Origin: Eledone cirrhosa
Taxonomy: Eukaryota
Assembly (NCBI GenBank): GCA_964016885.1
Contig: OZ024745.1
Location: forward strand, 73,346,001 to 73,410,000
Direction of reading: 5' to 3'
DNA: 64,000 nucleotides
Part shown: one piece after another, positions 1-55,160 of the stretch
Position numbering within the stretch: the stretch's first letter is position 1
Layout of the letters: every line of letters starts with the position of its first letter
Translations under genes and position numbers: made by a program
Notes under the pieces: generated by a model
Told to the model about the DNA's origin: nothing
The model's input: the letters and a program-made list of their open reading frames with translations, nothing else
Databases searched by the model: none

Positions 1-1647
1 TTAAAAATTTTGAAAATTAACGAAGGGAGGATATGTGCGAGGAAAAATATTTTATTTAGGGAGGGGGGGGGGAAGGATGAAAAAAAGGGGGAGGAGATGA
101 GAGTGAAGGTGGAGAGGGAGAGATGGGTGATAGAGAGAAAGAGATAGTTTTTATAACTGAGAAAAAGATATATTGTTTTAATATAGAGAGGTTGGGAACC
201 GTTGGAAGATAATGTATAAATTAAAGGAATTTGAAAATTAACGAAGGGAAATTATGTATGAAGATAGAGAGAAGAAAATAATAATTGTGGGTGAATATTC
301 TAACGTCAAAAGAAGAAATGTATGTATTGTGGCTATTTCAAAATTAGCGAAGAGAGAAATGTTAAGGTTTATGTGTAGAAGGATTTGAGAAAAATAATGT
401 GAAGTTAAAGTTTGTATATTGAATTCATATGTATTAATAATGAGTTCGTTGATGGGGAGAAAAAAATAAATAATAATAAATTAAGGATGAAATTGAGATT
501 AAAAAGATTTATGATAGAGAGAAAAAATAATAATGATTGCGGATGAATATTCAAAAAGTCAAAAACAAATGTTATTGTTTTACGAGAAGATAGAATGAGG
601 GTAATGAGTAAACGAGTATTATAGAGTGTATAATGCCCTTTAAAGTAAGGTAAGGTAGATGGGTATATTTTAAAGAGGTGTATGTATATGTGCCTTTGAG
701 AAAAGATTCTAAATTGATAAAGAATTGAATATTAACTGTATACTTTGTGAAAAGTTCTATGGAATTTATGCAGGCAGATAGAAAACAAATCTGAGCGTCT
801 ATTTATTATGGATTCTAGGTTAGAGATAATGGTAAATTTTTCATTTAGGCAGAGATTACAGATTTTAGATAGAGAGCTGTTCAAGTATGAGGATGCAGAA
901 GAAATCTTTTTCCAAAAGATGCTATATTTAATGTTTTTGTCTTTTAAGGACCATATGAGTTCTGAGAGAGCAGTGTTAGTTCTTTTAAGTTTGTATTTGA
1001 AAGATGAATGATGATTATAGAGACGAGCTTTAAAAGAGGTGGAAGTGGAGCCAAAATAGGTGAAGGAATTGGTGCTAGTTATAATTTTACATTCATAAAT
1101 TAAGTTTTTATCGAGGCAATGGTTGTTGAGAGGACATTTATTTTTAATGCGGCAGTTGCAATTAGAGAGATTATTAATGAGTGATCTAGTGTTATCTATA
1201 GAAGGAATTGGATTGGAGAAGTTGTTTGCGATAGGAATAATAGGAATAATAGTTTCTTGATTTAGAGTTGGATTATGAACATTTAGCGAAGTTGTGTTTG
1301 ACGTTGTATTTGGGTTTACAGAAGTTAGCCTAGGGTTTACAATGACGTCGGGAGTACTATTACTGTTATTATGAAATTCAATATTGGAAGGAAGAGATTT
1401 AGTATTTAATATTTTGTTGTTGTGTTTAGAGATGATGTTGGAAATATTGGAGGATGTAGAATACGAAAATTTGATGGTGTGTTTGTTAAATATTTTACTA
1501 TAGATATGTGAGGGAGGGAAGCATTTATTTAAGACACTAAAAAATAATTTAGGAATATTGTTATTAATAGAGATGGAGAAAGGAGCATTATACCAGATTA
1601 TGTTTTTGTATCTAGGTCTTTTATTAAAATTATTGGAATGGTTATGA
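1..1647 (-). mobile_element. Inverted partial copy of the Penelope-like element (3' part of ORF plus most of the pLTR); runs off the window start
   Basis: Reverse complement of ~4557-6206 with only a few substitutions. ORF-track peptides 808-1011(+) and 5193-5396(-) are identical except for one residue. Confidence 0.95.
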
Positions 1648-1651
1648 ACAG

Positions 1652-2993
1652 CTCATACTTGAACAGCTCTCTATCTAAAATCTGTAATCTCTGCCTAAAT
1701 GAAAAATTTACCATTATCTCTAACCTAGAATCCATAATAAATAGACGCTCAGATTTGTTTTCTATCTGCCTGCATAAATTCCATAGAACTTTTCACAAAG
1801 TATACAGTTAATATTCAATTCTTTATCAATTTAGAATCTTTTCTCAAAGGCACATATACATACACCTCTTTAAAATATACCCATCTACCTTACCTTACTT
1901 TAAAGGGCATTATACACTCTATAATACTCGTTTACTCATTACCCTCATTCTATCTTCTCGTAAAACAATAACATTTGTTTTTGACTTTTTGAATATTCAT
2001 CCGCAATCATTATTATTTTTTCTCTCTATCATAAATCTTTTTAATCTCAATTTCATCCTTAATTTATTATTATTTATTTTTTTCTCCCCATCAACGAACT
2101 CATTATTAATACATATGAATTCAATATACAAACTTTAACTTCACATTATTTTTCTCAAATCCTTCTACACATAAACCTTAACATTTCTCTCTTCGCTAAT
2201 TTTGAAATAGCCACAATACATACATTTCTTCTTTTGACGTTAGAATATTCACCCACAATTATTATTTTTTTCTCTCTATCTTCATACATAATTTCCCTTC
2301 GTTAATTTTCAAATTCCTTTAATTTATACATTATCTTCCAACGGTTCCCAACCTCTCTATATTAAAACAATATATCTTTTTCTCAGTTATAAAAACTATC
2401 TCTTTCTCTCTATCACCCATCTCTCCCTCTCCACCTTCACTCTCATCTCCTCCCCCTTTTTTTCATCCTTTCCACCCCCTCCCTCCCTAAATAAAATATT
2501 TTTCCTCGCACATATCCTCCCTTCGTTAATTTTCAAAATTTTTAATTTATACAGTATCTTCCAACGGTTTTCAACCCCTCTATATAAAAAATATATCTCC
2601 TCTCAGTTATAAAAACTATCTCTTTCTCTCTATCACCCATCTCTCCCTCTCATCCCCTTCCCTTCTCATCCTCCCCCCCCCTCTCTAAATAAAATATTTT
2701 TCCCAATATCACACATCAATCTAAAACCACTTTTCATATGTTGATTTAAAACTGCACTATCAACAAGTGTTTTTTAGCCTTCATATCATGTTCTCCTGTT
2801 TTATCTGATGAAAACAAATATTATTGCTTGATGATGTTTGTTTTTGAAATGCGCATAATAAAATATATGGAACTCCTTTAACCATCTTTTGATCTTATAT
2901 TATGCATACTCCAGTCCCACAAACTGTAGAGTGCTTCTTATCCGATATCTGCATTGCTTTATTGTACTACAATAAAACTCACCTTCTACATTA
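1652..2993 (+). repeat. 5' pseudo-LTR of the PLE
   Basis: Near-identical to 5313-6653. Includes the ORF C-terminus, CT-rich internal sub-repeats and a hammerhead. Confidence 0.93.
2799..2863 (+). ncRNA. Type I hammerhead ribozyme in the 5' pLTR
   Basis: ttttat-CTGATGA-aaacaaata...tgtttgttt(tt)-GAAA-tgcgca-TA-ataaaa. Stem I is ttttat/ataaaa and stem III is the palindrome ATGCGCAT, as typical of dimeric PLE HHRs. There are extra U residues before GAAA. Confidence 0.8.
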
Positions 2994-3009
2994 ACTTGCT
3001 CCTTAACGG

Positions 3010-5472
3010 TTGAGCGCTTACTCTCATATTGGATACCTTTTGATGGTCCTTCACCTCTTCTTCTACAACATGGATTATTACAACATAACCAATTCAACTA
3101 AAGACATTCCTATACCTGGTAAATCTGAATTCACCAAACTTCTTATTGAAAAAACTGACTCCTTCGTAAGAAGACTTAGATGGACAGCCTATTTCTATGA
3201 CCAGCGCCTAAAAGGGAACTTTCATACCAAAGAACACAACTTCCTCGATCATCTTTTTAATTCTAGACGAAATCCTCCTTCCAACAAAAATCTAGCACAA
3301 TTCGAGGAAGAATTAACTAAAATAATAAAAAATCTTAAATTCAAGAGATACCCTTACAAAGGACAAGAGCACCTTGTAAATCTCAAGAACACAATCTCTA
3401 ACCTAAATTCCTCAAAAAATGTTTTAGTCCACTCTGACAAAACCAATAACCTATATGGTATTTCCAAGGATAATTATAACAACCTTATCCTAAAGGAACT
3501 TAGGAAAAAGTATCGTAAAACCAACCATGAAAATTTAGAATGCATAAACCTTGAAGCCTATGAGATTATGTCAAAACTTGGCATTGAAAAAAAGACCGAA
3601 CCATTCCTCCCAAGAACTCCGAGGATAAATCTCAAGGATCACAAAAACAATTTTCGCACTGAACTACCTGTTAGATTAATCGCCCCCTCTAAATCTGATT
3701 TGGGGGTTGTTAGTAAAGCCATCTTGGATAGGATTATCCCACAGGTTAGTTCTAATTGCTCTTCTTTAAACCTAAATTTATGGTTTGGTACTTCTGAAGT
3801 GATTGGCTGGTTCAACAAATTGGATAATAAAAACAAACTAAAATTTATTCAATTCGATATTGCCAGCTACTATTCCTCCATTTCGCCTTCACTTCTCAAT
3901 AATGCTCTATCTTTCGCACTTAAATATTCTGACATCACCACAGATGAACTTCACATCATCCTCACCGCACGTAAAACCATCCTAGAGTTCAACAACGAAT
4001 ATTGGACCAGAGCCGATACCTCTAACAACTTCGACATCACAATGGGAGCATCCGATTCATCCCAATTGACTGATTTAATTGGTATCTTCATTTTGAACTC
4101 TTTGAGTCGGAAAATTCCTCAACTTCGCGGTGGAATTTATCGTGACGATGGACTCTTTACTATCCTAAATTGCAATATAGTTAAACTTAATATTATTAAG
4201 AACAATATACGTAATCTCTTTAACCAACATAACCTAAAAATTGAATTTGATAATAGTATCAAACTAGCTAATTTCTTGGATGTATCTCTTAATCTTGACA
4301 CTGGCCTATATTACCCTTACCATAAAAACAATGAGAATCTTAATTATGTTAACTTTAAATCTAACCATCCTACCAATATCAAGAATGCTATAGTTAATAA
4401 TATTGGAAATAGAATATCTAACATATCTTCTAATAAAAACATCTTTGATGCTAACGCCAATTACTATAATAACGCACTTTCTAAAGCCGGCTATCCAGAT
4501 AAAATCAAATATAATAAAGAAACAAATTCTAGGAAAACTTACAGTAGAATAATTAATCATAACCATTCCAATAATTTTAATAAAAGACCTAGATACAAAA
4601 ACATAATCTGGTATAATGCTCCTTTCTCCATCTCTATTAATAACAATATTCCTAAATTATTTTTTAGTGCCTTAAATAAATGCTTCCCTCCCTCACATAT
4701 CTATAGTAAAATATTTAACAAACACACCATCAAATTTTCGTATTCTACATCCGCCAATATTTCCAACATCATCTCTAAACACAACAACAAAATATTAAAT
4801 ACTAAATCTCTTCCTTCCAATATTGAATTTCATAATAACAGTAATAGTACTCCCGACGTCATTGTAAACCCTAGGCTAACTTCTGTAAACCCAAATACAA
4901 CGTCAAACACAACTTCGCTAAATGTTCATAATCCAACTCTAAATCAAGAAACTATTATTCCTATTATTCCTATCGCAAACAACTTCTCCAATCCAATTCC
5001 TTCTATAGATAACACTAGATCACTCATTAATAATCTCTCTAATTGCAACTGCCGCATTAAAAATAAATGTCCTCTCAACAACCATTGCCTCGATAAAAAC
5101 TTAATTTATGAATGTAAAATTATAACTAGCACCAATTCCTTCACCTATTTTGGCTCCACTTCCACCTCTTTTAAAGCTCGTCTCTATAATCATCATTCAT
5201 CTTTCAAATACAAACTTAAAAGAACTAACACTGCTCTCTCAGAACTCATATGGTCCTTAAAAGACAAAAACATTAAATATAGCATCTTTTGGAAAAAGAT
5301 TTCTTCTGCATCCTCATACTTGAACAGCTCTATATCTAAAATCTGTAATCTCTGCCTAAATGAAAAATTTACCATTATCTCTAACCTAGAATCCATAATA
5401 AATAGACGCTCAGATTTGTTTTCTATCTGCCTGCATAAATTCCATAGAACTTTTCACAAAGTATACAGTTAA
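3010..5472 (+). CDS. PLE polyprotein: reverse transcriptase + Cys-rich linker + C-terminal GIY-YIG endonuclease (most like the Naiad clade); probable ATG at 3070
   Basis: Uninterrupted 820 codons. RT motifs PVRLI, FIQFDIASYYSSI, FDITMGASDS, IYRDDGL, NFLDVSL. Linker CNCRIKNKCPLNNHC. GIY-YIG LIYECKI...TYFGST...KARLYNHHSSF. C-terminal CNLCLNEK...CLH. Confidence 0.93.
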   Translation: MSAYSHIGYLLMVLHLFFYNMDYYNITNSTKDIPIPGKSEFTKLLIEKTDSFVRRLRWTAYFYDQRLKGNFHTKEHNFLDHLFNSRRNPPSNKNLAQFEEELTKIIKNLKFKRYPYKGQEHLVNLKNTISNLNSSKNVLVHSDKTNNLYGISKDNYNNLILKELRKKYRKTNHENLECINLEAYEIMSKLGIEKKTEPFLPRTPRINLKDHKNNFRTELPVRLIAPSKSDLGVVSKAILDRIIPQVSSNCSSLNLNLWFGTSEVIGWFNKLDNKNKLKFIQFDIASYYSSISPSLLNNALSFALKYSDITTDELHIILTARKTILEFNNEYWTRADTSNNFDITMGASDSSQLTDLIGIFILNSLSRKIPQLRGGIYRDDGLFTILNCNIVKLNIIKNNIRNLFNQHNLKIEFDNSIKLANFLDVSLNLDTGLYYPYHKNNENLNYVNFKSNHPTNIKNAIVNNIGNRISNISSNKNIFDANANYYNNALSKAGYPDKIKYNKETNSRKTYSRIINHNHSNNFNKRPRYKNIIWYNAPFSISINNNIPKLFFSALNKCFPPSHIYSKIFNKHTIKFSYSTSANISNIISKHNNKILNTKSLPSNIEFHNNSNSTPDVIVNPRLTSVNPNTTSNTTSLNVHNPTLNQETIIPIIPIANNFSNPIPSIDNTRSLINNLSNCNCRIKNKCPLNNHCLDKNLIYECKIITSTNSFTYFGSTSTSFKARLYNHHSSFKYKLKRTNTALSELIWSLKDKNIKYSIFWKKISSASSYLNSSISKICNLCLNEKFTIISNLESIINRRSDLFSICLHKFHRTFHKVYS

Positions 5473-31953: not shown

Positions 31954-32649
31954 GGAAATGTGCGTTTATATATTTGTTTTGCAAGATTCTTGATGTGAAA
32001 TCGTGTGATGAAACAGATATTGTTATATTTGGGGTGGTCATGCTGCCAGTTTTGCCAATAAAAACACGCATTGTTTAACTTTCACACCAGCTTTATTAAT
32101 ATTAGTTATTGGTTATTGCCCATTTCGTAAAAGCTCTTTTGTCACACATTCTATGACCTCCTCGAGGACTATTTGTTCTTCTTTGTGTTTCCTTTTCTTT
32201 GTGGTCTTATTCTGTTTACTACATCTTGCCTTTCTGTGCTACATTTTCTTGCCCGCGGAAGTGTTTGCGTTTGTAGCTGTGTGTGTGTATGTATCTAGCA
32301 TGTATATGTGTGTCTTGTGTGCACGTGTGTGGGTTTGTATATTGCACTGTTTGTATCGTCATATTTTTTCTCCTTATGTGTCCCATTATGTTTTCAGTCG
32401 TTAGGTTTTTGGGTGAGTGTTTTACTATTCCATCCGTGTTTTCTTTTGAGATCTGGTCTACTTTCTATTTTGTGTGTGGCCTCCGTAATTTGTTTGAGTG
32501 TTGTATCGGTTATACGCGTGGATACATAGAACCGACACATAATAAAGTACTATTTAATTAGGTATATGCAGCACAACAAAATGAATCGAATGACTTTAAC
32601 AGATGACTGATACTATTGACATGAAATGCTTTATTAATTCTTTCTCGTG

Positions 32650-32743
32650 CGCCCACACCTTCTCATACACACTTACCATCACCTTTCCATCAAAAGGTTA
32701 GATCACCGCTACCACCTCTCTTTCTCTCTCTCTCTCGCACACA

Positions 32744-32832
<89 letters not shown>

Positions 32833-33089
32833 ACACACACACCCACACACACACACACCCACACACACAGAGACACACACACACAGACACACACACACAC
32901 GCACACACACACACACAGACACACACACACACACTTACCATCACTTTTCCATCAAAACGTGAGATCACGAGTACCATCTTTCTCTCTCTCCCTCTCTCTC
33001 AGACACACTCATACCACCATCTTTCCATCAAGACTTGAGATCATTAAGAGTCTCTCTGTCTGACTCTCTCTCTCTCTCTCTCTCTTTCT

Positions 33090-33123
<34 letters not shown>

Positions 33124-33200
33124 CCAACGCACACGCTCGTACCACACACCTTCCAATGAAACCGACCTTTTACACAACAGAAAACACCAAGTTTAATATA
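32650..33200. repeat. Compound minisatellite: cttaccatcacc/ttttccatcaa units interleaved with (CT)n and (CA)n; related block at ~33880-34100
   Basis: The motif recurs at ~32672, 32934, 33021, 33918 and 34037. Confidence 0.7.
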
Positions 33201-34159
33201 ATAAATATTTGACACTGAGGTAATTCAACGGTTTCATTAGAAAAAACACCAAATGCTAAAAATCGATATATCATTTTAAATGTTTTCTTTATAAGTGATA
33301 TTGTTTACACACTAACAAAATATGTGGCACGTAATTGTATATACACAACAAGATATACAACAATATCGACCATGCAAAAAATAAATGAAATAAATTTAAC
33401 AAATGATTGGAAATTACCAAAATGGAATATTTTACTTATTTATAATTTGAGGATAAACAATATTTTTCATAAAAATAATTCTCCCCCTCTCTCTCTACCT
33501 CCTCTCTCTTCCCCTCTCTCTCTCTCACTTTCTCTCTCTACCTCCTCTCCCTCATTCTATCCCCCTCCTCTCTCTCTCTCCCTCACTCTATTCCCCCTCT
33601 CTGTCTTCCCTTTCTCTCTCTCACTCTCTCTCTCTCACTCTCGGTCTTCTCTATCTCTCTGTACCTCCTCTCTCTCACTCTCCCTCTCTCTGTACCTCCT
33701 CTCTCTCACTGTCTCTCTCTACCTCCTATCTCTCCCTCTCACTCTCTCTCTCTCTCTCTCTCTCACTTTCTCTCTCCTCCTACGCCTCTCTCTCTCACAC
33801 ACACACACGCACACACTCTCTTATTACTCTCTTTTCGTAATTGTTATAGCGTGGGATTTCGGCCTTGCTGCCACTACTAGCACCACCGTTATGTTTCTCT
33901 CACACGCACACAAGCTTTTACCATCACCTTTCCAAAGCATGATCCACCTGATTCCCCCCTCTCTTTCTCCATCTCTCTCTCTCTTCCTCTCTCTCTCTCC
34001 ACCTCTCTCCCTTTCTCGCACACACACAAACACACTCTTACCATTTCCCTTTTTCAAGATGACAGACGTTTTACGCTATAGAAACACCAACTTCAATATT
34101 ATAAGTAGATAGACAGACATACAGACACGTTGATAGATAGATAAATAGATAGATAGATA

Positions 34160-34209
34160 AATTTCTATTTATTTGCCACGAGGGCACAAAAGAAGGGGAC
34201 ATTTACACA
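34160..34209 (-). mobile_element. 50-bp 3' terminus of a Tx1-like LINE in (GATA)n
   Basis: tttatttgccacgagggcacaaaagaaggggaca matches the 3' ends at ~34232 and ~37192; gata repeats on both sides. Confidence 0.8.
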
Positions 34210-34404
34210 GATAGATAGATAGATATATTTCTTTATTTACCATAAAGGCATAAAAAGAAGGGACAAATACAAAGGGGGAGTTTACATAAAACCGAGTAAA
34301 AAGGGTATAAAATGAAAATAATCGAAAACAACCTCGAAAAAGTGTGCAATCCTTTGCCCGGGGAGCACATGGAGAAGGTGCTCCCCTCTCCTTCACTTCT
34401 TTAC

Positions 34405-35556
34405 CTACAGGATGGTATACAGAGAAGGCCCATTTACACGAGCCATTCTCGCCACTATCACCCACCTTTCATAAAGCTGCCTGTGGCCAAGCTCCTCTCT
34501 CTCCATTCTTATCCTTCTTCCGAAGTGATATCGGAAGAAGTAGACCAGACTATGGCCAGAGAGGAAGCTGCCTGACCTCAGACCTTTCAATCGTGTCCAC
34601 CAAATAACCTCTTTCAACATGGCTATTACGCACAGAAAAACCGCCTTTGCTTCCTTTGTGAAAAAGGGAGGCGGCTTCATTGTCATCACGGATTCGGCGG
34701 TCAATCGAATCGGCGCCACCCGCGACAGCAGTCGTTCGGCGTAGCCCCACAGATCAGCCACGCCCGGACATTGCACCAATGCGTGTGCAACGGTTTCTTC
34801 GTGACGCACGCATCTAGGGCAAATCTTTTTCGAGGGATCCCTGCCCGGGCGCCCGTGTCTGTAGAGCCTCTCTCGAACGGGTAGAGCCCCCCGGTAGCAG
34901 TGCCAGGCCAGTGACTTCTGGAAGTTGTCCATTGTTCCCGGGCCGAAAGTCCTACCGAACAGGCTGGCCAGTTCGTCCTCTTCCATGTCCAGCGACTCTC
35001 CAAGGGTGTCATCGCCCCTGCTAGCCACCAGCCCTCTATAGAATGACGAGGTGGATTCTCCACCGATGGCCGGGTCCGCTTGCCAGAGAGCCCTGAGCGC
35101 CTGGGCACACTCAGTGTGCCAGTCGCCCAGTTTTCCGGATCTTTGCTTGACCCAGGACTGCAGCTCGGTGAGCGAGACGAGTCTCGGAAAGGCTCGTCTC
35201 ACGAACGGAACCCACACCGGTTGACCAGTGAGGAATACCTGTAGGTGCCGTAGCCTTAATGCGTGCCTACGCAACATCAACCACGGCATCCCCAGCCCTC
35301 CTTTCGAAGGTTGTTGGCAGCAGATGGATCTTCTCACCATAGGAGGGCGCTTTTTCCAAAGAAATTGAAAGAGCATGCGTTCCATGGTGGTGAGTGTTTC
35401 CTTAGGGCAAGGCACGATAGTCAGGCGGTAGTAGGTGACGGACGCTATGTAAATGTTCGCCACCTCCGCCCGACCTTTCAGGGACAGCTTACACTTGGCC
35501 CATTTCTGGGTCAGTGCAAACACCTTGCTCGTAACCTCACCCCAGTTCTTTTCCAC
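34405..35556 (-). CDS. C-terminal remnant of Tx1-like ORF2 (post-RT region and zinc-binding domain)
   Basis: LSLKGRAEVAN, SKGGLGMP, CPRCVRHEETVAHALVQC; the frame is open for 383 codons. Confidence 0.85.
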   Translation of the reverse strand: MEKNWGEVTSKVFALTQKWAKCKLSLKGRAEVANIYIASVTYYRLTIVPCPKETLTTMERMLFQFLWKKRPPMVRRSICCQQPSKGGLGMPWLMLRRHALRLRHLQVFLTGQPVWVPFVRRAFPRLVSLTELQSWVKQRSGKLGDWHTECAQALRALWQADPAIGGESTSSFYRGLVASRGDDTLGESLDMEEDELASLFGRTFGPGTMDNFQKSLAWHCYRGALPVRERLYRHGRPGRDPSKKICPRCVRHEETVAHALVQCPGVADLWGYAERLLSRVAPIRLTAESVMTMKPPPFFTKEAKAVFLCVIAMLKEVIWWTRLKGLRSGSFLSGHSLVYFFRYHFGRRIRMEREELGHRQLYERWVIVARMARVNGPSLYTIL

Positions 35557-36559
35557 CTGTTTTATTGAGTGAGGGGTTGGGTGGGACTGTGTTTTGTTTT
35601 TGGGTAATGTGTTGTGTCTGTTTGTGTTGTGGTGGTGGTGTAGTTTTACTGAGGGACGGGTTGGGTGGGACTGAGTTTTGTTGTTTGTTTATCTGTTGTG
35701 GTGGTGGTGGAGCTGGTGTTGGTAGCAGGGTTTTCTTCTTGTTGAGTTGGGGACAAGCCGCCTTCAGGTGCCCTCTGCCTGCACAGATATGACAGGACGG
35801 CCTTCTCCCCTCCACGCTAATGTTTATATACCCGTGGCCCTCTAATAGGATTCTGTCGGGTATTTGGGCAATGCGTTCAGGCTTCATTTGCACTACAAAT
35901 TCTATACCTGTTCCACTGAACGCATTGCCTGTGGTTTTCCCAATGGAAATCACGTTGTCATTCGCTGGATCGATGAAGCCAGCTATGAGCCAGCAGTAGT
36001 CTACATCTGGCATCATCGCATCCAGCCATATGCGCTGAGTTCTTTTACCCATATAAGATGGATAAAAGGTAAAATTTGTCGAACGAATCGGCGACAAAGC
36101 ATATTTTTTTGCCGCTGATTCGTTCTTCATAATAATCGTTAGGTTTCCATACAGCCTGTCTCTTCTTATGAAAGTGGCTTCATTAAGTACTTCTGTAAGT
36201 ACTACTTTAATTTCTGCTTGTGTTGGTTGTTGAGGTTTTTTTGAGATGTTGTTGATGGTGCGGAAAACGACCGTCCGACTTTCAATATCTTTGGTGAGTT
36301 CTTGGGGCATTTTTACCGATAAGATTCCATTTTCCCCTTGAGTTATGTATTGTTTGGCCTTTTTTATTCTTTGTGCCACATCTGAAATATTTTCAGGTAT
36401 ATATGTTAAAGATTTCTTTGTTGTTTGTGCAAATGAAATATTATTGGTGTTGACTTTGTCGTCTGCTTTGCTTTCTGTTATGATGTTGTTTTCAAATGTT
36501 ATTTTTGTGTTTGTTGTGTCTTTGTTTGTGGTATTAATATTGTCATGCAAATCTTTCAA
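35537..36559 (-). CDS. Tx1-like ORF1 (nucleic-acid-binding protein with CCHC knuckle), C-terminally truncated
   Basis: VEGRRPSCHICAGRGHLKAAC followed by P/Q-rich repeats; homologous to 41780-42672. Confidence 0.85.
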   Translation of the reverse strand: MKDLHDNINTTNKDTTNTKITFENNIITESKADDKVNTNNISFAQTTKKSLTYIPENISDVAQRIKKAKQYITQGENGILSVKMPQELTKDIESRTVVFRTINNISKKPQQPTQAEIKVVLTEVLNEATFIRRDRLYGNLTIIMKNESAAKKYALSPIRSTNFTFYPSYMGKRTQRIWLDAMMPDVDYCWLIAGFIDPANDNVISIGKTTGNAFSGTGIEFVVQMKPERIAQIPDRILLEGHGYINISVEGRRPSCHICAGRGHLKAACPQLNKKKTLLPTPAPPPPQQINKQQNSVPPNPSLSKTTPPPQHKQTQHITQKQNTVPPNPSLNKTGGKELG

Positions 36560-37108
36560 ATTTTTTTGTTGTTGAAATCAATGTCCAGATTTGTGTTTTC
36601 GTCATTTTTCTCCGCACATTCGTCTGTTTTTCTTTTATTTTTTCTTTCCTTCTCTATGACGTTAGTTGGGAAGGAAGGGGGGACTAAAGCGTGCGAGCTT
36701 ACAACTCTTACCGCTGTCCCCCCCACCACTATTTTCGTTAGCTTCGTTTAACATTTCTGTCAGACGATTGAACTTTTATGCCACAAATTTTTAAAAAACA
36801 GGTTTTTCACTCCTGGGAGGGGCGAAGATGAGCTGACCCACCGCCTGACAGTTCAGACGGGGGGTCAAGCTACACAATAGTATCAAAATTAAAATTGAAC
36901 TTACAAAATTTCCGCAATAAATTTGAACAAAACTTCTGCGCGAAGTGAATTACATCTCTGCTGTAGAACAGACGACAGCTAGATTGATAGATAGATAGAT
37001 AGATAGATAGATAGTTTGGTAGGCAGGTACGTAGGTATGTAGGTAGGTAGGTATGTAGGTGGGTGAGATATTAGGTAGATATAGAGATAGATAGATAGAT
37101 GGTTAGAT

Positions 37109-37161
<53 letters not shown>

Positions 37162-37425
37162 GAGAGAGAGATAGGTAGATAGATATGTTTCTTTATTAGC
37201 CACAGGGGCACAAAAGAAGGGGACAAATACAAAAGGGGATGTTTACATACAATAAAAACGTGTAAAATATTATCACAAATGCAATTTAAAAATTAAACAA
37301 TTTTCCCAAATAGGGGGAGACATTACATATGGGTAACACATACCCCCGAAAAAAAATGTGCAACCCTCATCTCCAGGAGTACGAAGAGTTTGTACTCCTT
37401 TCCTCTCCTCCTCTTTTTCCTCAAC

Positions 37426-40400
37426 CTACAGGCTGATATAGAGAGAAGGCCCATTCACTCGGGCCATTCTCGCCACTTTCACCCACCTTTCATAAAACTT
37501 GCTGGGGTACAGCACCTCTCTCTGCATCCTGATTCTTCTTCCAAAGTGGTATTTGAAAATAAGAATCAGTTGTTGGCCGGAGAGAAAATGTCTGACCTCA
37601 GCCCTTTCAACCTTGTCCACCATACAACCTCTTTCGCCATAGCTATCACACAAAGGAAAACCGCCTCTCCTTCCTTTTTGAAGGAGGGTGGCGGTTTGAT
37701 CATGACAATGGACTTGGTGGTCAACTGGATTGGTCCCACCCGCGACAATAGTCGTTCCACATAGCCCCACAGGTCGGTGACGCCCGGGCAGTGTATGAAT
37801 GCGTGCGCGACGGTTTCTTCGTCTCGCACGCACCTCGGACAGATCTTTTTGCAGGGTCCCTGCCCGGGCGCCCATGTCTGTAGAGCTTGTCTCGAACTGG
37901 TAGAGCTCCTCGGTAGCACTGCCAGGCCAGGGACTTTTGGAAGTGGTCCATCGGTCCCGGGCGGAAGGTCCTACTGAACAGACTGGCCAGTTCGTCTTCT
38001 TCTACGCCCAGAGTTTCACCGAACACGTCGTCGCACTTGCTGCGGATCAACCCTCTATAGAATGACGAAGTGGAGTCTCCACTGATCGCCGGGTCCGCCT
38101 GCCAGAGGGCTGTGAGCGCCTGAGCACATTCGATGTGCAAGTCGCCCATTTTCCTCGGTCTTTGCTTGACCCAGGACTGCAGCTCGGTCAGCGAGACGAG
38201 TCGTGGGAAGGCTCGCCTCACGAACGGGGCTCACACCGGTTGTCCAGTGAGGAATACGTAGAGAAGCTGCAGCCTGAGCGCGTGTTTGCGCATCGTCAGC
38301 CACGGCATCCCCATCCCTCCGTTGGAAGGGCGTTGGCAGCAGATGGATCTTCTCACCAAAGGAGCCTGCCTCTTCCAAAGGAATTGAAAGAGCGCGCGCT
38401 CCATTTTGGCGAGCGTTTTGGTGGACAAGGCACGACGGTCAAGCGGTAGTAGAAGGCGGACGCTATAAAAGTGTTCGCCACCTCCGCTCGATCTTTCAAT
38501 GATAGTTTGCACTCGGCCCACTTCTGGGTGAGTGCAAACACCTTGACCGACACCTCGTTCCAGTTCTTCTCCACCTGGAGGTCCGGACCAAACCAGACCC
38601 CGAGCAGCTTTACTGGTCCTTCCGTCCAGCCTTGGAAGTGGTCCATCGGAATGCATTGGTTTGCCTCTCCACGATCCGAGTTACAAAACGATGGACTTGT
38701 CCCGGTTCAGCTTCGCTCTTGTGAACCTTTCGTATTCCTTCAGTAAGGTGCCGACCTCCTCGATTTACGAGGCGCTCGACACCATTACTGTCACGTCGTC
38801 GGCGTAGGCCGACGCCGCTTTCCGCAGTCCCGGTTCCAACTTCCTTAGTAGTGGCTCGAGAGTCAATACGTACAGAAGGGAGGAGAGAGGGCATCCCTGT
38901 CGAATGGATCGCGTAGCCGTTCACCTTAACCCTTGAGCAGATGTTGCTGTTATGCATTGCAGCAATCCAGCCCTTGAACACGGGTCCGAAGCCTGCCGCC
39001 TCGAGCACCGCAACCAGGTAACGATGGTCAACCCTATCGAAAGCCTTAGACTGATACAAGTTGATCAGGGCCCCACCGAAGCCGGGTTTACACCCTACCC
39101 TCTCTATGATGTATCGCATGACGTGGAGGTTGTCGTGTATGGACCTGGTCGGGATTGTGCATGTCTGCGCTTCTCCCACCAGGTTCTCGACGACAAGCGC
39201 CAGCCTCTTTGCCAACACCTTGGCCAAAATCTGTAACTGTGTTTAGCAGAGTTATGGGCCGGAAGTTGCCTATGTCATCCCCCTTATTCTCGTCCTTCCT
39301 GACAAGTGTGACTACGCCCCCGGTCACAGAACTGGGAATTCTCCTGTTCTGTTGCCAGTTGCAGTAGACCGCTTCCAGGAGACCGGAGAATAAGTCCGGC
39401 ATTGCTACGTAAAATTCGTAGGGTAGACCGTCGAGACCTGGAGATTTGCGTTTGCCGCATTGGCTCAACGCGTCCCCTATCTCAGCGGCTGAAATCGGCT
39501 TTTCGCAGAACCTTGCCTCGCTGTCCGAGAGTCGTGGTAGGCCGTCGAGGTATGGACTAAAATCCATAGCCCCTCCCGGCGCGCCGCCCTGCCCGAACAG
39601 CTGAGCAAAGTGCCGCTGAAAGGCCGCACACATCTGCTTCGGCTCACGTATCACGCGTCCGTTTTGGTCCTTCAAAGACCGAATCGTGGACTTGTTGCCA
39701 CTTTTTGCCTCCGTCACTCGGGCCCAGCTAACAGCTTTGGCTCCCTCGTTTCCCAGAGCACGTATTTTGCTTCTGACAACGCAGTCCTCATGCTTTGCGT
39801 CGAAGAACTGGCCCAAGGCCGTTCTCGTTGCTAGCACGCTGGCTACGTTGCCACTTATAATTGCCTCTTCTACTTTATCTACCAATTCTTTCTCCGTTCT
39901 ATTTCTATCTAACGTTAATTCTTTACTAAAAACTAACGAGTCTAATCTAACTGCCCTCTTGCGAGAGTACCACCATCTGTTGTTGACAATGGCCCCTGTC
40001 AAGTGCTGTTTAACTAAAGTGCTAATCCGTCTACTGTAGGCTTTGCATGTCGGTAACGACAAGTTCAGCTTCCAGTAGCCGGGTCCTTGTCTATGGGTTC
40101 TATCAAGGTTGACCATGCAGGTTACTAGTTTGTGATCTGAATAGGCAACCATGAACATTTGTGGACAGCTTAACATGTCCCTATCTTTATTTCTAACTAG
40201 AACCCTATCTAGGTACGATCTAGATGTTCCGCTGCGATTAGTCCACGCCCACAGTGGCACAGTCGGAAAATCTAGTCGATATCTATCGGCCAGGTCAAAT
40301 CGGCCGATTAACTGTTTGATGATGTTACACCCCCCTTTATCGGGACATGCTCCCACATAGTCCCAACGTGCATCTAGGAATCCATTCCAGTCCCCCACTA

Positions 40401-40812
40401 AAAGCAAGGAGCGGGACGTTCCCAGAAAAGCCTCTAGACGTTTGAAGAAGTCTGGCCGCGGTGTCCCGGATGGGGCATATGCGGCCACCAGCCTGAAGGC
40501 TCCACCTTCACTACCGTCAACGTCTAGGACCACCAGTCGACCCTCCGGGTCCAGATGTACCGTCTGTGTTACGAGGCCCAGGTGTTTCCGTAGCAAAACG
40601 GCAACCCCGTCCCCATCCCCCGGCTGACAGAGAGATGCGTAGATCTCAAAGTCATCGAAGATGGGGGCCAGCTGTCGCTCGCTGTGGATCCTGGACTCGT
40701 AAATGGCTACTACATCCATACTGTGCGACCTGAGGTCGTTTAAGAGTTTGCCCTGTTTCCAGGGCATCCCCAGGCCGCGTACATTCACACACCCAACTCT
40801 TATATTGGCCAT
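37426..40812 (-). pseudogene. ORF2: APE endonuclease - RT - zinc-binding domain, several frameshifts
   Basis: MANIRVGCVNVRGL, LLVGDWN, SYLDRVL, SDHKLV, KSPGLDGLPYEFY, NFRPITLLN, KAFDRVDH, YADD (~38795-38806), CPRCVRDEETVAHAFIHC. Confidence 0.93.
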
Positions 40813-40849
40813 GTTGGTTCTGAAAAGTTCAAAGAGGAGAAGAAAACAC

Positions 40850-41642
40850 TCACCTCTTCGTCTCCCGGGTATCAGGCCGCACGGTTTCCATGGGGGTGTT
40901 AGAGGAGTTGTCTGGGTGGGTGGTGGTTTCCGGCAGGGTGGGGACGGAGATGTTTGGTGGGGTGGGGGTGTCTGGGGTGACTGTGTCTGGGGTGAGGGTG
41001 GGGAAACTTTTTTAAAGGACCCGGTTAATGGGTTTAACACAAGGATTACCCACGTCCTTAGGAAAGTTTTCCTTTAAAGACTTATAACTGTCCGCAGGGA
41101 CCCTAATCATCTTTAAATTAGGTTTGTCTACACAGTTCGAAAAAGTTTTCCCTTCGGTGAAAACCGAAGGGTCGTTGGAGATGACCTCCATTAAACTTTT
41201 GTTTTTACTGTTTATGTATGTGTAATGTTCTTGTTGTGTTGCGGTGGTTTTTGTCTGTTGTTCTTGTGGGAGCTTTCGTTTTGTCGTAGGTGTTTGTGTT
41301 TGGAGTGATGTCGTGGTTTTGTTTTCGGGACGGGGGGGGTTTTGTTTGTAATGTTTGTGTTGTTTGTGTTGGTGGTTGTATGTTTGTAGTGATGTTTTTT
41401 GTTTATTTTGTTCTTGTGGTGTCTTTTCTTCTTTCTTTTCGAACGGAGAGGCTCTCCCTCATCATCACTTGGTGATGATGTGGGGGCCTCGTCCGTTGTG
41501 GTCTCCGTGTTATTTGGAAGGGGGTATGTTTTGGGGAGCTGTTGTGTTTGTGGGTGTTTTTGCAGTGGTTTTAGGTGGAGTGGGGTTGGGTGGGACTGTA
41601 CTTGCAGGTTGGTTTGTTGTTCTTGTTTTGGTTGTGTTTGCG

Positions 41643-41709
<67 letters not shown>

Positions 41710-42672
41710 GGTGTTGTTGTTGTTGTTGTTGTTGTGGTTGTGTTGTTGTTTTGGGTGTTGGCAGTAGTGGCTCTTTTTTTTATTTAGTTAACTGAGGACA
41801 ACAAGCCTTCAGGTGACCACTGCTTAAACAGTGGTAACATGAAGGCCGCCTACCCTCAACAGAAATGTTTATGTGTGAAATTCCATCCAGAGGCACACGT
41901 TGGGGTATTTTAGCTATCCGTTCTGGCCTCATTTGGACCAGAACTTCTATGCTTGTACCATTGAATGCGCCTCTGGAGGACTTTCCCACCGAAATGATGG
42001 TGTCTTCGTCGAAATCGATAGAGCCAGTTAGAATCCACCAGACGTTTACATTTGGTGCAATGTTCAAAATTTTTATTTTTTGAGTTCTTTTTCCCATATA
42101 TGTGGGGGAAAAGGTGTAAAGAAGAGGGGGGGGGACACAATCGGTGATACAGAATATTTTTGTGCTGTCAATTGGTCTTTCAACAACACCGAAATGCTTC
42201 CAAAAAGTTTCCCTTTTTGGATGAAGGCAATATCCTTCATGGAATTCTTCAGAACCAGTTCAATATCGTTTTGGGATAACTGAACTGGTTTTTTCGACAC
42301 ATTTGAAACCGTCCTAAAAATTACTGTTTTTAGAACAGTTTCTCTGCGTAACTGTTGAGGAGAAGTGATGCTGAAAGCACCACTCTCACCAAAAGTTACG
42401 TACTGTTTTCCATCGCTTAACATTTCCCTAGCATTGGAAATGTCAAGGTATGTGAACAGTTCCGTCTTTTGGACGGTTTGAGCAAAATAAATCTTTTCCT
42501 TGTTCGTGGAGTTGTTCGTGTTGCTGCTGTTGTTGTTGGTGGTGTTGTTGTTATCATTGTTGCTGTTGTTCTTGTTGTCATTATTGTTGTTGTTGCTCTG
42601 GTTGGTGTTGTTTATATTTTGCATGTTATTGGTGTTTGTTTTAGTGTTGATGTTACAATCAACGTCCGACAT
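40850..42672 (-). pseudogene. ORF1 of copy A, with frameshifts, CCHC knuckle, poly-N and poly-Q tracts
   Basis: VEGRRPSCYHCLSSGHLKACC; (CAA)n at ~41643-41750; frameshifts near homopolymer runs at ~42100 and ~41775. Confidence 0.8.
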
Positions 42673-43003
42673 CGTGTTTTCAAAACTGACGATGAGGTGG
42701 TGAGAGTAGGTGAATGCGAGCTTAACACTCTTACCGCCTCTCCACCACTTCTAGTTATGAACGCAGCGTTCATGACTGAATGCAAGGTTTGTTAACAATA
42801 TTTTTTATGACCGGCGAAATTTGTTTCAAAACGAAAATTTCACCCCAGGGAGGGGTGAAGATGACTTGACCCACCGTCTGAAAGTCCAGACGTGGGGTCA
42901 AGCTATAAAATAGTAATAAATTTAACAATAAATTTTTGATTTCTTACTTAGAAAATCAACAAAAACTTACCAGCGAACTGGCACACGTCTCAAGTAAAAC
43001 CAG

Positions 43004-43086
<83 letters not shown>
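43004..43086. repeat. (GATA)n microsatellite
   Basis: About 20 perfect units. Confidence 0.98.
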
Positions 43087-43087
<1 letters not shown>

Positions 43088-43792
43088 TATGAATACAATA
43101 TAAGATATAAATCAAGTGAAAGACCTTTATTCAGCTAGCACTGAATAAGCTTAGAGTAGAGATGAAGAAGCTTCCATTGCTTATCTAGTTTCGTTGTATT
43201 TTACATAGAATGACAATCAAACTAAAGTGAATTGATTGGTAGTGAGGTGAGGAATAGTTGTGTTTAGAAGGAAGTGCTAGAGGCCAAAATAGCTGGAGTA
43301 ACTAAATGACTGTAAATGTCGGAAAAATTCTTTAAGGAAATACAAGAACGATTGAGCCGTGTTTGAATCCACTAGATGGAGACACAAACACTCGTATACC
43401 CATACAAACAGTTACATACACATACCCATGGATGCTGACAGTTACACACACAAATACATGAATCTGCAAGATCAATAAGTACACACTCACACATACGTAC
43501 GCATTTGCAGCAAACACGAATACACTACTTGAATAAGCGCGCGTACACACACGCAACACATACATGAACATATATATAAATATGTATAAATAAATACATA
43601 ACAATAAGAGCATGAATACACATGAATACACATTTTCGACTATAGCATCTATTAAACGTTCCCATTCATTATCAATTACGTTATAGTAGCCAGACGAGTA
43701 TGTGGTCGAATCTGAAACTTGGCTGCTATTTCTGACATTGTGAATGACCACGTAGTTGTCCTCTCATTTTCTCGAATCAGAGTGTTAATAAC

Positions 43793-44322
43793 AATAATTG
43801 TTTCTACTTTTGGCACAAGGCCAGCAATTACCGAGTGCATTACTGGTACTTTGTGTTATCGACCCCGTAAGGATGAAAGGCAAAGTTAACCTCTGTGGGA
43901 TTTGAACTCAGAATGGCAAGGGCTGCAACTCTATGCGTTAAAGCATGGCGTCTGACCCTCTACCGGTACTGCCAATCCACTAATAATGCTTCTACTTTTG
44001 GCACAAGGCCAGCAATTATCCCAGTGCATTTTATCGACCCCGTAAGGATGAAAGGCAAAGTTAACCTCTGCGGGATTTGAACTCGGAACGTAAAGTGCCA
44101 TAACTCTATGGTGCAAAGCATGGTGTCTGACGCTCTACTGATACTGCCAAATGGTTTCTAATATAAGCACAAAGCCAGCAATTTGGGGAAAGGGAATGTC
44201 GATTAAATCGACCCCAGTGCATTACTGGTCTTTATTTCATCGACTCCGTAAGGATGAAAGGCAAAGCTAACCTCGGCTGGATTTAAACTCAGACCGTAAA
44301 GAGCCGTAACTCTATACTGCAA
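43793..44322 (-). mobile_element. Three head-to-tail SINE family 1 copies
   Basis: 43793-43980, 43981-44152 and 44153-44322. Confidence 0.88.
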
Positions 44323-52833: not shown

Positions 52834-54960
52834 CCTACAGATCAGGGGAACATACCAGCCAGGTAGATTATATCCTTAACAGAAGACGTATCAGAGTGTC
52901 TGTTGTAAACACTAAATCCCCCATGAAGAATGCACCTTCCAACATAGACTCATAGTTAGCGACCTCATAGTCAGGACGAGACATACTTGACAACAGAGGA
53001 GGACTATCCTAAGGAGAAGAATATGGCAGTTAAAGGACCCCACAGCCAGTAACAAATTTAAAAGCATATTACTTGATGCTTTTGACAGTAAGGAAGAGCA
53101 ATTAGAGACGTACAATATAGAGGAACAGTGGGAATTCCTGAAAGTTAACCTGCTGAAGGCGACAGTTGAAATCTGTGGCTGGAGCAGACCTATAGGCAGG
53201 AGGAGAGTAACGTGGTGGTGGAACAGTAAGGTGGAGGAGTCAATCAAGGCCAAAAAGCAGGCTTGGAAAGTATGGCGGGATGGGGGAAGTAGAGAAGACT
53301 ATCAAGTAGCCAGGAGGGAAGCTAGGAGACAAGTGTACTTTGCAAGAAGGGAAGCAGACGAAAGAAAGTTCAAGCATGTTCTACAACGCGAAGACCAAAA
53401 ACGTGAGGTGTTCAGGATTGTTAGGCAATGTGTCAAGGAAAACCGTGATATTGTCGGGGAGAAGTGTGTCCGTAATGATGATGGTGTACTTGCCATCACT
53501 GATGCTGATAAGAAGGTAGCTTGGAAGTGTCACTACGAGAGGCTACTAAATGAGGAGAATAAGTGGGAAAAAGATAGTCTGCCCCACATCGATCCAATAG
53601 AGGGACCAGCAGTGCAAGTTGAAGGTAGTATAATAAGTAAGGCAATCAAAGATATGAAGACAAGCAAGGCACCTGGGCCTTCGGAGATAGTTGCTGAAAG
53701 CATCTGGAACGGTGGGACACACTGTGGTCACCCGGATAGTAAACCAAGTCATACAGAACTGTGTCATACCAAATGACTGGCGTAGCAGCATCATCTTTAA
53801 CTGCTACAAGGGTAAAGGAGATGCCCTAGATAGGGGAAACTATAGACGCATTAAATTAATTGACCAGGTCATGAAGGTCACAGAAAAAGTTATAACACAA
53901 CTAATAAGAGAGCAAATTGATCTAGACGAAATGCAGTTTGGGTTTGTGTCAGGTAAAAGTACCACAGACGCCCTTTTCTTTGTACGACAACTACAGGAGA
54001 AGTACCTAGCTAAAAGTAAACCCCTATACTTAGCTTTTGTTAACTTGGAGAAAGCATTTGACAGAGTCCCCCGCTCGATTATCTGGTGGGCCCTTAGAAA
54101 ATTAGGGGTTGATGAATGGCTGGTGAGAGCTATACAAGCCATGTATAAAGAAACAGTCAGCAAGGTTAGAATTAACAACGAATATAGTGAAGAATTTAGC
54201 ATAAAAGTTGGTGTTCATCAGGGCTCTGTTCTTAGTCCCCTCCTATTTATTATTTCCCTTCAGGCTATAACAGAGGAGTTCAAGACCGGCTGCCCATGGG
54301 AACTTCTATATGCAGATGATCTAACGCTCATAGCTGAATCGATGGCTGAACTAGAGAAGAAATTCCAAACATGGAAGCATGGCCTAGAATCAAAAGGCCT
54401 TAAAGTTAACTTGTCTAAGACTAAAGTTCTAGTATGTAGGAAGGAAAATAGGGCACAGGTCACCATGGGAAATGGCCATGCTCAGTGTGTAGGGAAGGAG
54501 TAGGCAGAAATTCCATTTTATGTCCCTAATGCAAAGTATGGGTGCATAAAAGATGTAGTGGGATCACAGGTAAGCTATCTAAGAACGTAGATTTTATATG
54601 TGGCCGGTGCTCAGGTGCAATAGGTAGCAAGTGTCCACAGGATACTAGCTCCTTCTATTGCCCAGATGTCTCTATAGAAATAGTGGACACCTTCCGTTAC
54701 CTGGGTGACAAACTCAGCAGTGGTGGAGGGTGCTCTGAAAGTACAGTAGCCAGAGTCAGAACGGGATGGAAAAAGTTCAGAGAGCTTATACCACTATTGA
54801 CCACTAAAGTTTTCTCTCTAAAAATGAAAGGCAGACTGTATGATGTCTGCATACGAACTGTTATGTTACATTGCAGTGAGACATGGGCATTGTGTGCAGA
54901 GGATCTGCGCAGACTGGAGAGGAACGAAGCATGCATGCTCCGCTGGATGTGTAATAGTAA
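52726..54960 (+). pseudogene. RTE-clade LINE fragment: APE C-terminus - RT - PHD-like Cys cluster; frameshifted
   Basis: HLITYRSGEHTSQVDYIL, KAPGPS, KGKGDALDRGNYR, FVNLEKAFDRVPR, GVHQGSVLSPLLF, LLYADDL, WVHKRCSG...FICGRC, FRYLGD. Confidence 0.93.
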
Positions 54961-55160
54961 TACACGGTGTATTTTTGGTTAAGAGGTATCTACTGACTGT
55001 AGGTTTCGCTTTGTACTTAGGCAAGGTCTTCTGTATTACTGCGTAGCGTCAAAGATCTCGGTCCAATGACATTGTCTTGGAGAGGTGTAAGTGTGTCAGG
55101 TCGGATTTTATCAAATCGTCCCAGGTTTTTCTGGGTCTGCCTACTCCGTAGCTTCCATCA
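54961..55160 (-). mobile_element. RTE-like ORF C-terminus in inverted orientation, tail-to-tail with the body
   Basis: Minus strand reads KCRAIKIDGSYGVGRPRKTWDDLIKSDL. Confidence 0.75.

Follow-up and report, generated by a model that had tools for sequence, protein, structure and literature searches.

The leaders of Tx1-like LINEs in Eledone cirrhosa carry exactly one intact splice-donor hexamer in every one of the 14 families we compared. In most of these families it is followed, at short-intron spacing, by branch-point-like and acceptor-like motifs that fall within a covarying hairpin (hairpin i). We give an even chance to the reading, drawn from the DNA sequence, that the leader is splice-controlled, with hairpin i lying over the branch point and the acceptor of a short intron. 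A first-pass annotation had recognized structured modules here and overlooked that the conserved bases in and upstream of hairpin i match a candidate donor, branch point and acceptor at intron spacing.

Two Elements and Fourteen Families

The window, i.e., the whole stretch of DNA analysed, is 64 kb long (OZ024745.1, positions 73,346,001-73,410,000) and was drawn from a 3.0-Gb, microsatellite-rich genome. It holds two LINE copies, A and B, arranged head-to-tail on the minus strand, and the 5′ end of each adjoins an (ATCT)n tract (Table 1). ORF2 of the group encodes an APE endonuclease, a reverse transcriptase (RT) and a zf-RVT domain (Pfam); in one intact family-B copy ORF1 has 626 codons and ORF2 1145 amino acids. 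The best named match of ORF2 is a “Transposon TX1 uncharacterized protein” (26% identity), nearer matches being unnamed. A word search with ORF1 returned zero homologs and a profile search 217 matches, all unnamed; the neighbours of ORF1 in a protein atlas are zf-CCHC/ZCCHC3-type proteins (0.90-0.92). This predicted make-up, with APE, RT and zf-RVT in ORF2 and an RNA-binding/CCHC ORF1, fits the Tx1 clade label. Membership of the Penelope-like elements was rejected, as ORF2 is APE-type and not an RT fused to a GIY-YIG endonuclease.

Table 1. Features of elements A and B in the window. A caret marks a predicted splice junction.
Feature	Element	Position	Strand	Remarks
Tx1-like LINE	A	37190..43003	-	full-length, with frameshifts; ends approximate
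Tx1-like LINE copy	B	34225..36985	-	internal deletion fuses mid-ORF1 to late ORF2; ends approximate
AGACGT, DPE-like motif	A	42985..42990	-	5′ end (~43003) abuts (ATCT)n
AGATGT, DPE-like motif	B	36952..36957	-	5′ end ~36985
Upstream donor hexamer CTG^GTAAGT	A	42965..42970	-	site of families A, C, F
Candidate acceptor TTTTATAG	A	42903..42910	-	68 nt from donor (C 69, F 67)
Alternative acceptor CAG	A	42880-42878	-	93 nt from donor
Predicted 60-nt intron	B	36845..36904	-	GTAAGT 36904-36899; branch-like TTGAC 36868-36864; CAG 36847-36845
Hairpin i	A	42864..42903	-	holds TTGAC 42901-42897 and CAG 42880-42878
Hairpin i	B	36831..36871	-	
Hairpin ii	A	42839..42859	-	8 bp
Hairpin ii	B	36806..36826	-	
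ORF1 start codon	A	42771..42773	-	frameshifted downstream by 19-nt loss
ORF1 start codon	B	36752..36754	-	extra G in following G-run
Stem-loop iii	A	42697..42748	-	ORF1 codons ~9-26; inner hairpin GAGT/GCTC 42730-42718
Stem-loop iii	B	36670..36730	-	ORF1 codons ~9-28; approximate
Second donor hexamer AG^GTGAGT	A	40848..40853	-	overlaps ORF1 stop; 36 nt before ORF2 ATG (40812)

The insertion target of the group is (ATCT)n/(GATA)n. Families pile up head-to-tail in (ATCT)n with a spacing of about 5.8 kb (e.g., G000:C1 4223506-4253896 and 168108115-168119767). Two copies of family B3 (L154 and L155) carry intact ORF1 and ORF2 and are young. Elsewhere in the window there is a separate reverse transcriptase of another element (52991-54982, plus strand; RVT_1, E 4e-31), as well as two stop-free frames of 821 codons (3007-5472, plus strand) and 306 codons (732-1652, minus strand) in strongly skewed sequence, on both of which Pfam gave zero matches.

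Our comparison uses 14 related Tx1-like families (A-N) from the same genome, found via tandem-array neighbours and hairpin patterns. Their ORF1 cores are 36-79% identical and the ORF1 tree is poorly resolved. The numbers of distinct sequences per family are B 109, A 32, J 16, C 13, I 9, K 8, D 8, L 6, G 6, H 5, E 3, F 2, M 1 and N 1; some sampled loci duplicate one genomic place, and M and N are single copies. The sample was chosen largely by hairpin ii, so selection accounts for part of the perfection of that hairpin in C, D, E, G-L, M and N, and families without it would escape the sampling. A hairpin ii pattern with one G-C pair occurs at 1055 places genome-wide; another pattern matched only two mutated A/B copies. 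Because base-pair counts share ancestry, the shuffle counts given below are not probabilities.

Splice-Type Motifs and the Hairpin across Them

The single intact donor hexamer (GTAAGT, GTGAGT, GTAGGT or GTAAGY) stands at one of two sites, -108 to -117 or -75 to -83 from hairpin ii. The animal donor consensus is given as agGTaagt in a passage of PMC13644364. At the downstream site, GT-R-R-G-T is present in all 11 families that use it, with a mean pairwise identity of 0.88 versus 0.37 before and 0.47 after; by chance, such a donor would be expected at 0.006 per family. The A of a branch-point-like YTRAC lies 39-43 nt downstream of this donor in the 11 families. YTRAC forms the base of the 5′ arm of hairpin i, is present in 13 of 14 families (all except F), and its R is a purine in 13 of 13 even though it is unpaired in five of the 13 rows. 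U2-type branch points have the motif YTRAY, about 18-40 nt before an AG; here, in the 11 families with the downstream donor, an AG follows YTRAC at a distance of 20-28 nt. In nine of them a YAG occurs 20-21 nt past the branch A, at the top of the 3′ arm of hairpin i, which gives a predicted intron of 59-63 nt, a layout that matches the geometry of small introns in Drosophila. In the other two, I (TAG) and J (GAG), whose consensus is without the in-hairpin YAG, the next AG comes at 28 nt; in K and L the in-hairpin CAG becomes TAG. An exonic G at -1 is found at just one of the 11 downstream donors. A YAG also lies 2-8 nt upstream of the ATG in eight of 14 families and may be an alternative acceptor. 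Contigs of another organism span the leader from donor to hairpin ii, and stem iii as well; none is listed with a variant in the donor, the branch motif or the acceptor.

Families A, C and F are without the downstream donor. Their donor lies 32-35 nt further upstream and is followed 67-69 nt later by TTTTRTAG, a T-rich candidate acceptor just before hairpin i and outside it. In B, G and M the upstream donor site holds a decayed NGAAGT. The leaders of A, C and F look alike, but an A+C+F clade on ORF1 is rejected (p-AU 0.0003). Since the three are not a clade, the donor has switched more than once or leaders have been swapped.

Could the donor be kept for something other than splicing? It might be a landing pad for U1 snRNP near the cap, protecting an A-rich transcript from early polyadenylation or boosting transcription, while YTRAC and YAG are kept as parts of hairpin i. 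The donor is indeed the best-conserved signal (14 of 14 families versus 9 of 11 for the acceptor), an intact copy carries AATAAA-type hexamers near the beginning of its ORF1, and our genome patterns turned up no spliced copies. However, a landing pad requires neither the fixed distance to the branch-like motif nor a new T-rich AG at 67-69 nt each time the donor moves, and H, J and N still have YTRAC despite the decay of their hairpin i. We consider this explanation rather unlikely.

The leaders were claimed in the first-pass annotation to be structured, which our folding bears out for A (z -5.6) and B (z -5.2), with none of 100 shuffles as stable. Three modules had been assigned to the element strand; all three lie in their places on the minus strand of both copies. 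Compensatory changes had also been claimed. When A is compared with B only, all differences in hairpins i and ii are one-sided (wobble) changes; double changes appear with the other 12 families, and once the 14-family set is used both hairpins covary beyond shuffles. For hairpin i in 13 families, 76% of 208 cells are paired (33-45% in slid-alignment controls). Its covariation is 0.204 versus 0.132 in shuffles, with 0 of 500 as high, in an alignment where the row of family I is shifted at two columns and two of the eight double-change pairs stem from this misaligned row. Family F was left out of the counts for hairpins i and ii because its sequence does not align; at the position of hairpin i it has an unrelated sequence, which folds into a hairpin of the same length (z -6.6).

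By folding energy, in a table where rows C and I are out of register by one, hairpin i is strong in A, B, C and F (z -5.1 to -6.6), moderate in D, L, G and M, weak in E, I and K, and no better than shuffles in H, J and N. The predicted pairing probability is at least 0.89 for the branch A in 10 of 13 families and at least 0.99 for the acceptor A in nine of 13. Given the weak hairpins of E, I and K and those of H, J and N that do not rise above shuffles, occlusion of the two sites would not be general. The sense strand of the leaders is not favoured over the antisense strand in folding energy.

Upstream of the donors there is an RGACGT motif, which we take to be a DPE-like internal promoter element. 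It is found in 13 of 14 families, and in 12 of these its distance to hairpin ii, which follows it, is 130-132 nt, whichever donor site is in use; this fixed spacing could point to a DNA promoter architecture. Only family B has about 28 bases of its own upstream of the motif. For most of the others, a start site 28 nt before the motif would lie within the (ATCT)n target; their transcripts may therefore initiate in the microsatellite and may carry target repeats at their 5′ end. The conserved bases might be DNA elements of an internal Pol II promoter and the hairpins palindromic factor sites. Besides the fixed spacing, this agrees with hairpin ii being an almost perfect inverted repeat that has no strand preference, and with the human L1 donor, described in a passage of PMC5860796 as kept as part of a RUNX3 site. 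It does not agree with the half-sites of co-existing families, which differ (TTCG, TTCA, TTTA) and are each matched by their complement, nor with the unrelated hairpin i of family F at the same place. Moreover, the donor varies as U1 pairing allows and jumps between two sites, and stem iii (below) covaries across amino-acid changes. A pure promoter explanation therefore seems improbable to us.

In 13 of 14 families the ORF1 stop is overlapped by a second donor-type hexamer (AG^GTRAGT or GTAGGT); the single copy compared from family E has it mutated. The hexamer is followed by a pyrimidine tract and then by the CCAAC-ATG of ORF2, and ORF2 ends in CCTGTAG^G.

Hairpin ii and a Stem within ORF1

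Hairpin ii is almost perfectly paired: of the 104 cells given by eight pairs in 13 families, 103 are Watson-Crick and one is G-U, which none of 10,000 shuffles reach. Double changes are found at two of the eight pairs. At pair 5, seven families have G-C, five A-U and one G-U; at pair 6, 11 have C-G and two U-A. Family F has a shorter variant. The RNAalifold consensus on a MAFFT alignment was weak (-6 kcal/mol) owing to misalignment of loops of 4 and 5 nt, and the pairs were therefore counted loop-anchored by a script. In all 14 families hairpin ii is followed by a spacer of 65-87% A/T and then the ATG, at a distance of 37-87 nt.

Module iii had been placed in the 5′ UTR. It consists instead of in-frame codons of ORF1 (approximately 9-27). 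An upstream, open, in-frame ATG is found in 68 of 81 copies, 12-13 codons before the module iii motif in 66 of them. The reading frame through the module runs for more than 500 codons in the best copies, with a complete ORF1 in L154, and its translation is A-V-R-V-(L/V)-S-S. The 19-nt loss after the motif in A and the extra G in B conceal this coding nature in the window copies. On a loose contig end from another organism, an in-frame ATG precedes the same S-G-G codons. The IRES-like role that had been proposed for the module is thus hard to maintain, as it is ORF1 coding sequence downstream of the AUG; Rfam IRES models had no match in the window leaders or ten further loci. The sequence described as conserved, GCGGTAAGAGT..TAAGCTCGCA, is shared by A and B and in part by G, H, M and N but absent from the other eight families, while the stem is general.

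Stem iii pairs a purine-rich with a pyrimidine-rich arm within the first ORF1 codons. Family E has GCAGC/GCUGU and family I GAGGC/GCCUC in place of the inner GAGU/GCUC, and the encoded amino acids change as well. Several observations concern the surrounding sequence. Four copies of a subfamily of C (L188, L190, L191 and L197) have TTG in place of the ORF1 ATG, and a non-AUG start upstream of stem iii is possible there. In D, E, H and J-N the first ORF1 codons contain GCCACGCC (A-T-P/L), kept at the DNA level including a rare ACG codon, which resembles an Sp/KLF site. A splice donor inside module iii (GCG^GTAAGA) was considered and dropped, since it is not kept across families.

These positions raise the question of whether all three stems serve only translation or particle assembly, as a scanning brake, a start-codon helper past the AUG, or a binding site of ORF1p or ORF2p, with the splice-like motifs incidental. 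The order of hairpin ii, A/T-rich spacer and ATG in 14 of 14 families speaks for such roles, and so do the six of 14 families in which stem iii beats synonymous shuffles (z <= -1.8); in the other eight, however, it does not, and such roles do not explain why each of the 14 families has its donor at one or the other of two mutually exclusive sites. As a full account we think it improbable as well. A role of hairpins ii and iii in translation or assembly, such as the packaging signal that had been suggested, can coexist with a splice-controlled leader, in which the two stems would act on ORF1 initiation or particle assembly.

The head-to-tail arrays, spaced about 5.8 kb, permit read-through, and a new self-cleaving ribozyme that frees the element from read-through transcripts had been suggested. 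As had been stated, the leaders match no known ribozyme: an Rfam scan (E <= 10 for positions 32000-44000 of the window, E <= 1 for ten further loci) gave nothing over the leaders, the HDV-like, hammerhead, twister, pistol and hatchet classes included, and only chance miRNA-type matches outside them. Motif descriptors, run without a positive control, matched 0 of 14 families for HDV-like, 0 of 14 for hammerhead and 1 of 14 for a loose twister. The loops and joiners are variable, the hairpins lie 100-160 nt inside the 5′ end of the element, which nearly all copies keep in full, and the DPE-like motif suggests that the element has its own promoter. Self-cleavage is thus very improbable.

A Search for Intron-Less Copies, Known Systems and a Possible Two-RNA Cycle

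An element that is copied through RNA would be expected to lose its introns. To our knowledge, Penelope is the known exception, and splicing of human L1 yields dead ends. We searched the genome with exact patterns for joined leaders of families A and B only. The pattern of the donor of family A followed by a non-G base had one match, a 1-base loss, and no spliced copy. The 60-nt join of family B had no match in the genome. The donor of B followed by A or C had four (three G>A changes and one 7-nt loss), none of them spliced, and joins from the donor to the YAG before the ATG were not found for A or B either. Thus no copy of these two families was found from which the predicted intron had been precisely removed, as in the SpIREs of L1, with patterns blind to joins that start with G (A) or, except for the 60-nt join, with G or T (B). 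Contigs placed on A and B had no joint at the predicted introns, which carries no weight, their runs being DNA or of unstated kind; in one run no contig spans 36811-37000 of B, a gap from which nothing follows. The denominator is roughly several hundred leaders: the module iii motif has 940 genome matches (reversed control: 0), and the full 5′ end is kept in 57 of 60 copies chosen without using the leader. The three leader-truncated copies (L087, L099 and L108) stop inside hairpin ii (two) or at the foot of stem iii (one); these points fit pausing of the reverse transcriptase at stems and are too few to count.

According to the available passages of PMC5860796, about 1.8% of full-length human L1 copies (116 of 6,609) carry one spliced leader form. 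Compared with this proportion, the lack of a spliced copy indicates that splicing here is rare, absent, or kept from reverse transcription. It fits tight repression and equally no splicing at all.

Among known systems, the following come closest. In Penelope of D. virilis, as described in the passages of PMC2377424 that we draw on, a 75-bp intron that sits 46 bp past the start undergoes splicing but is nevertheless retained, and its removal abolishes reporter protein without lowering RNA. The likeness is that an internal-promoter retroelement has, near its start, a short intron that genomic copies keep and whose signals are conserved among relatives; here a predicted intron of 59-69 nt would begin at about +47 or +80 if the DPE-like motif is at +28. 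The difference is that Penelope has a GIY-YIG endonuclease and splicing demonstrated by RT-PCR (PMC2377424, same passages), whereas we deal with a two-ORF, APE-type LINE whose splice sites are predicted from DNA and whose branch point and acceptor lie in a covarying hairpin. The human L1 5′ UTR with its SpIREs (PMC5860796) belongs, like the leaders described here, to a LINE of the L1 group; its conserved donor also lies near the 5′ end, and splicing there conflicts with retrotransposition. Unlike our families, L1 leaves spliced copies and keeps its donor as a RUNX3 site; here there is a mini-intron layout, the donor has switched position and our patterns revealed no spliced copy. Kibi, Koshi and crocodilian Tx1 share with our group the two ORFs, the APE, RT and zf-RVT domains and insertion into simple repeats, but target microsatellites other than (ATCT)n/(GATA)n, and the passages concerned describe no leader structure or intron (PMC4494074, PMC3812793). 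In open-access main texts we found no such leader structure or intron described for Tx1 or any other APE-type LINE.

How might a splice-controlled leader work? Transcription would start from the DPE-like internal promoter and U1 would engage the donor. Hairpin i would hide the branch point and the acceptor, leaving most RNA unspliced. The unspliced RNA alone would make ORF2p and be copied in cis, thus preserving the intron; such cis-copying would explain why the intron was never lost. The spliced fraction would be the ORF1 message, and hairpin ii and stem iii would tune initiation or assembly. Retroviral leaders offer an analogy only, with a major splice donor near the cap and upstream of the packaging stem-loops, as does the downstream loop of alphaviruses, a stem inside the first codons. 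More tentatively, and in our opinion doubtful as a whole, the group may run a retrovirus-like two-RNA cycle in an APE-type LINE, with the leader hairpin as a splice switch. Spliced RNA would yield ORF1p, with ORF2 perhaps also removed via the ORF1-stop donor, and only unspliced RNA would make ORF2p and be copied; a functional intron would then have survived the divergence of at least 14 families while its donor moved more than once.

What is new here is a LINE lineage that keeps a mini-intron layout across 14 families, with the predicted branch point folded into a covarying hairpin. If the splice-controlled reading is true, these elements would offer a compact, testable case of an intron surviving retrotransposition and of a LINE setting its ORF1p:ORF2p ratio.
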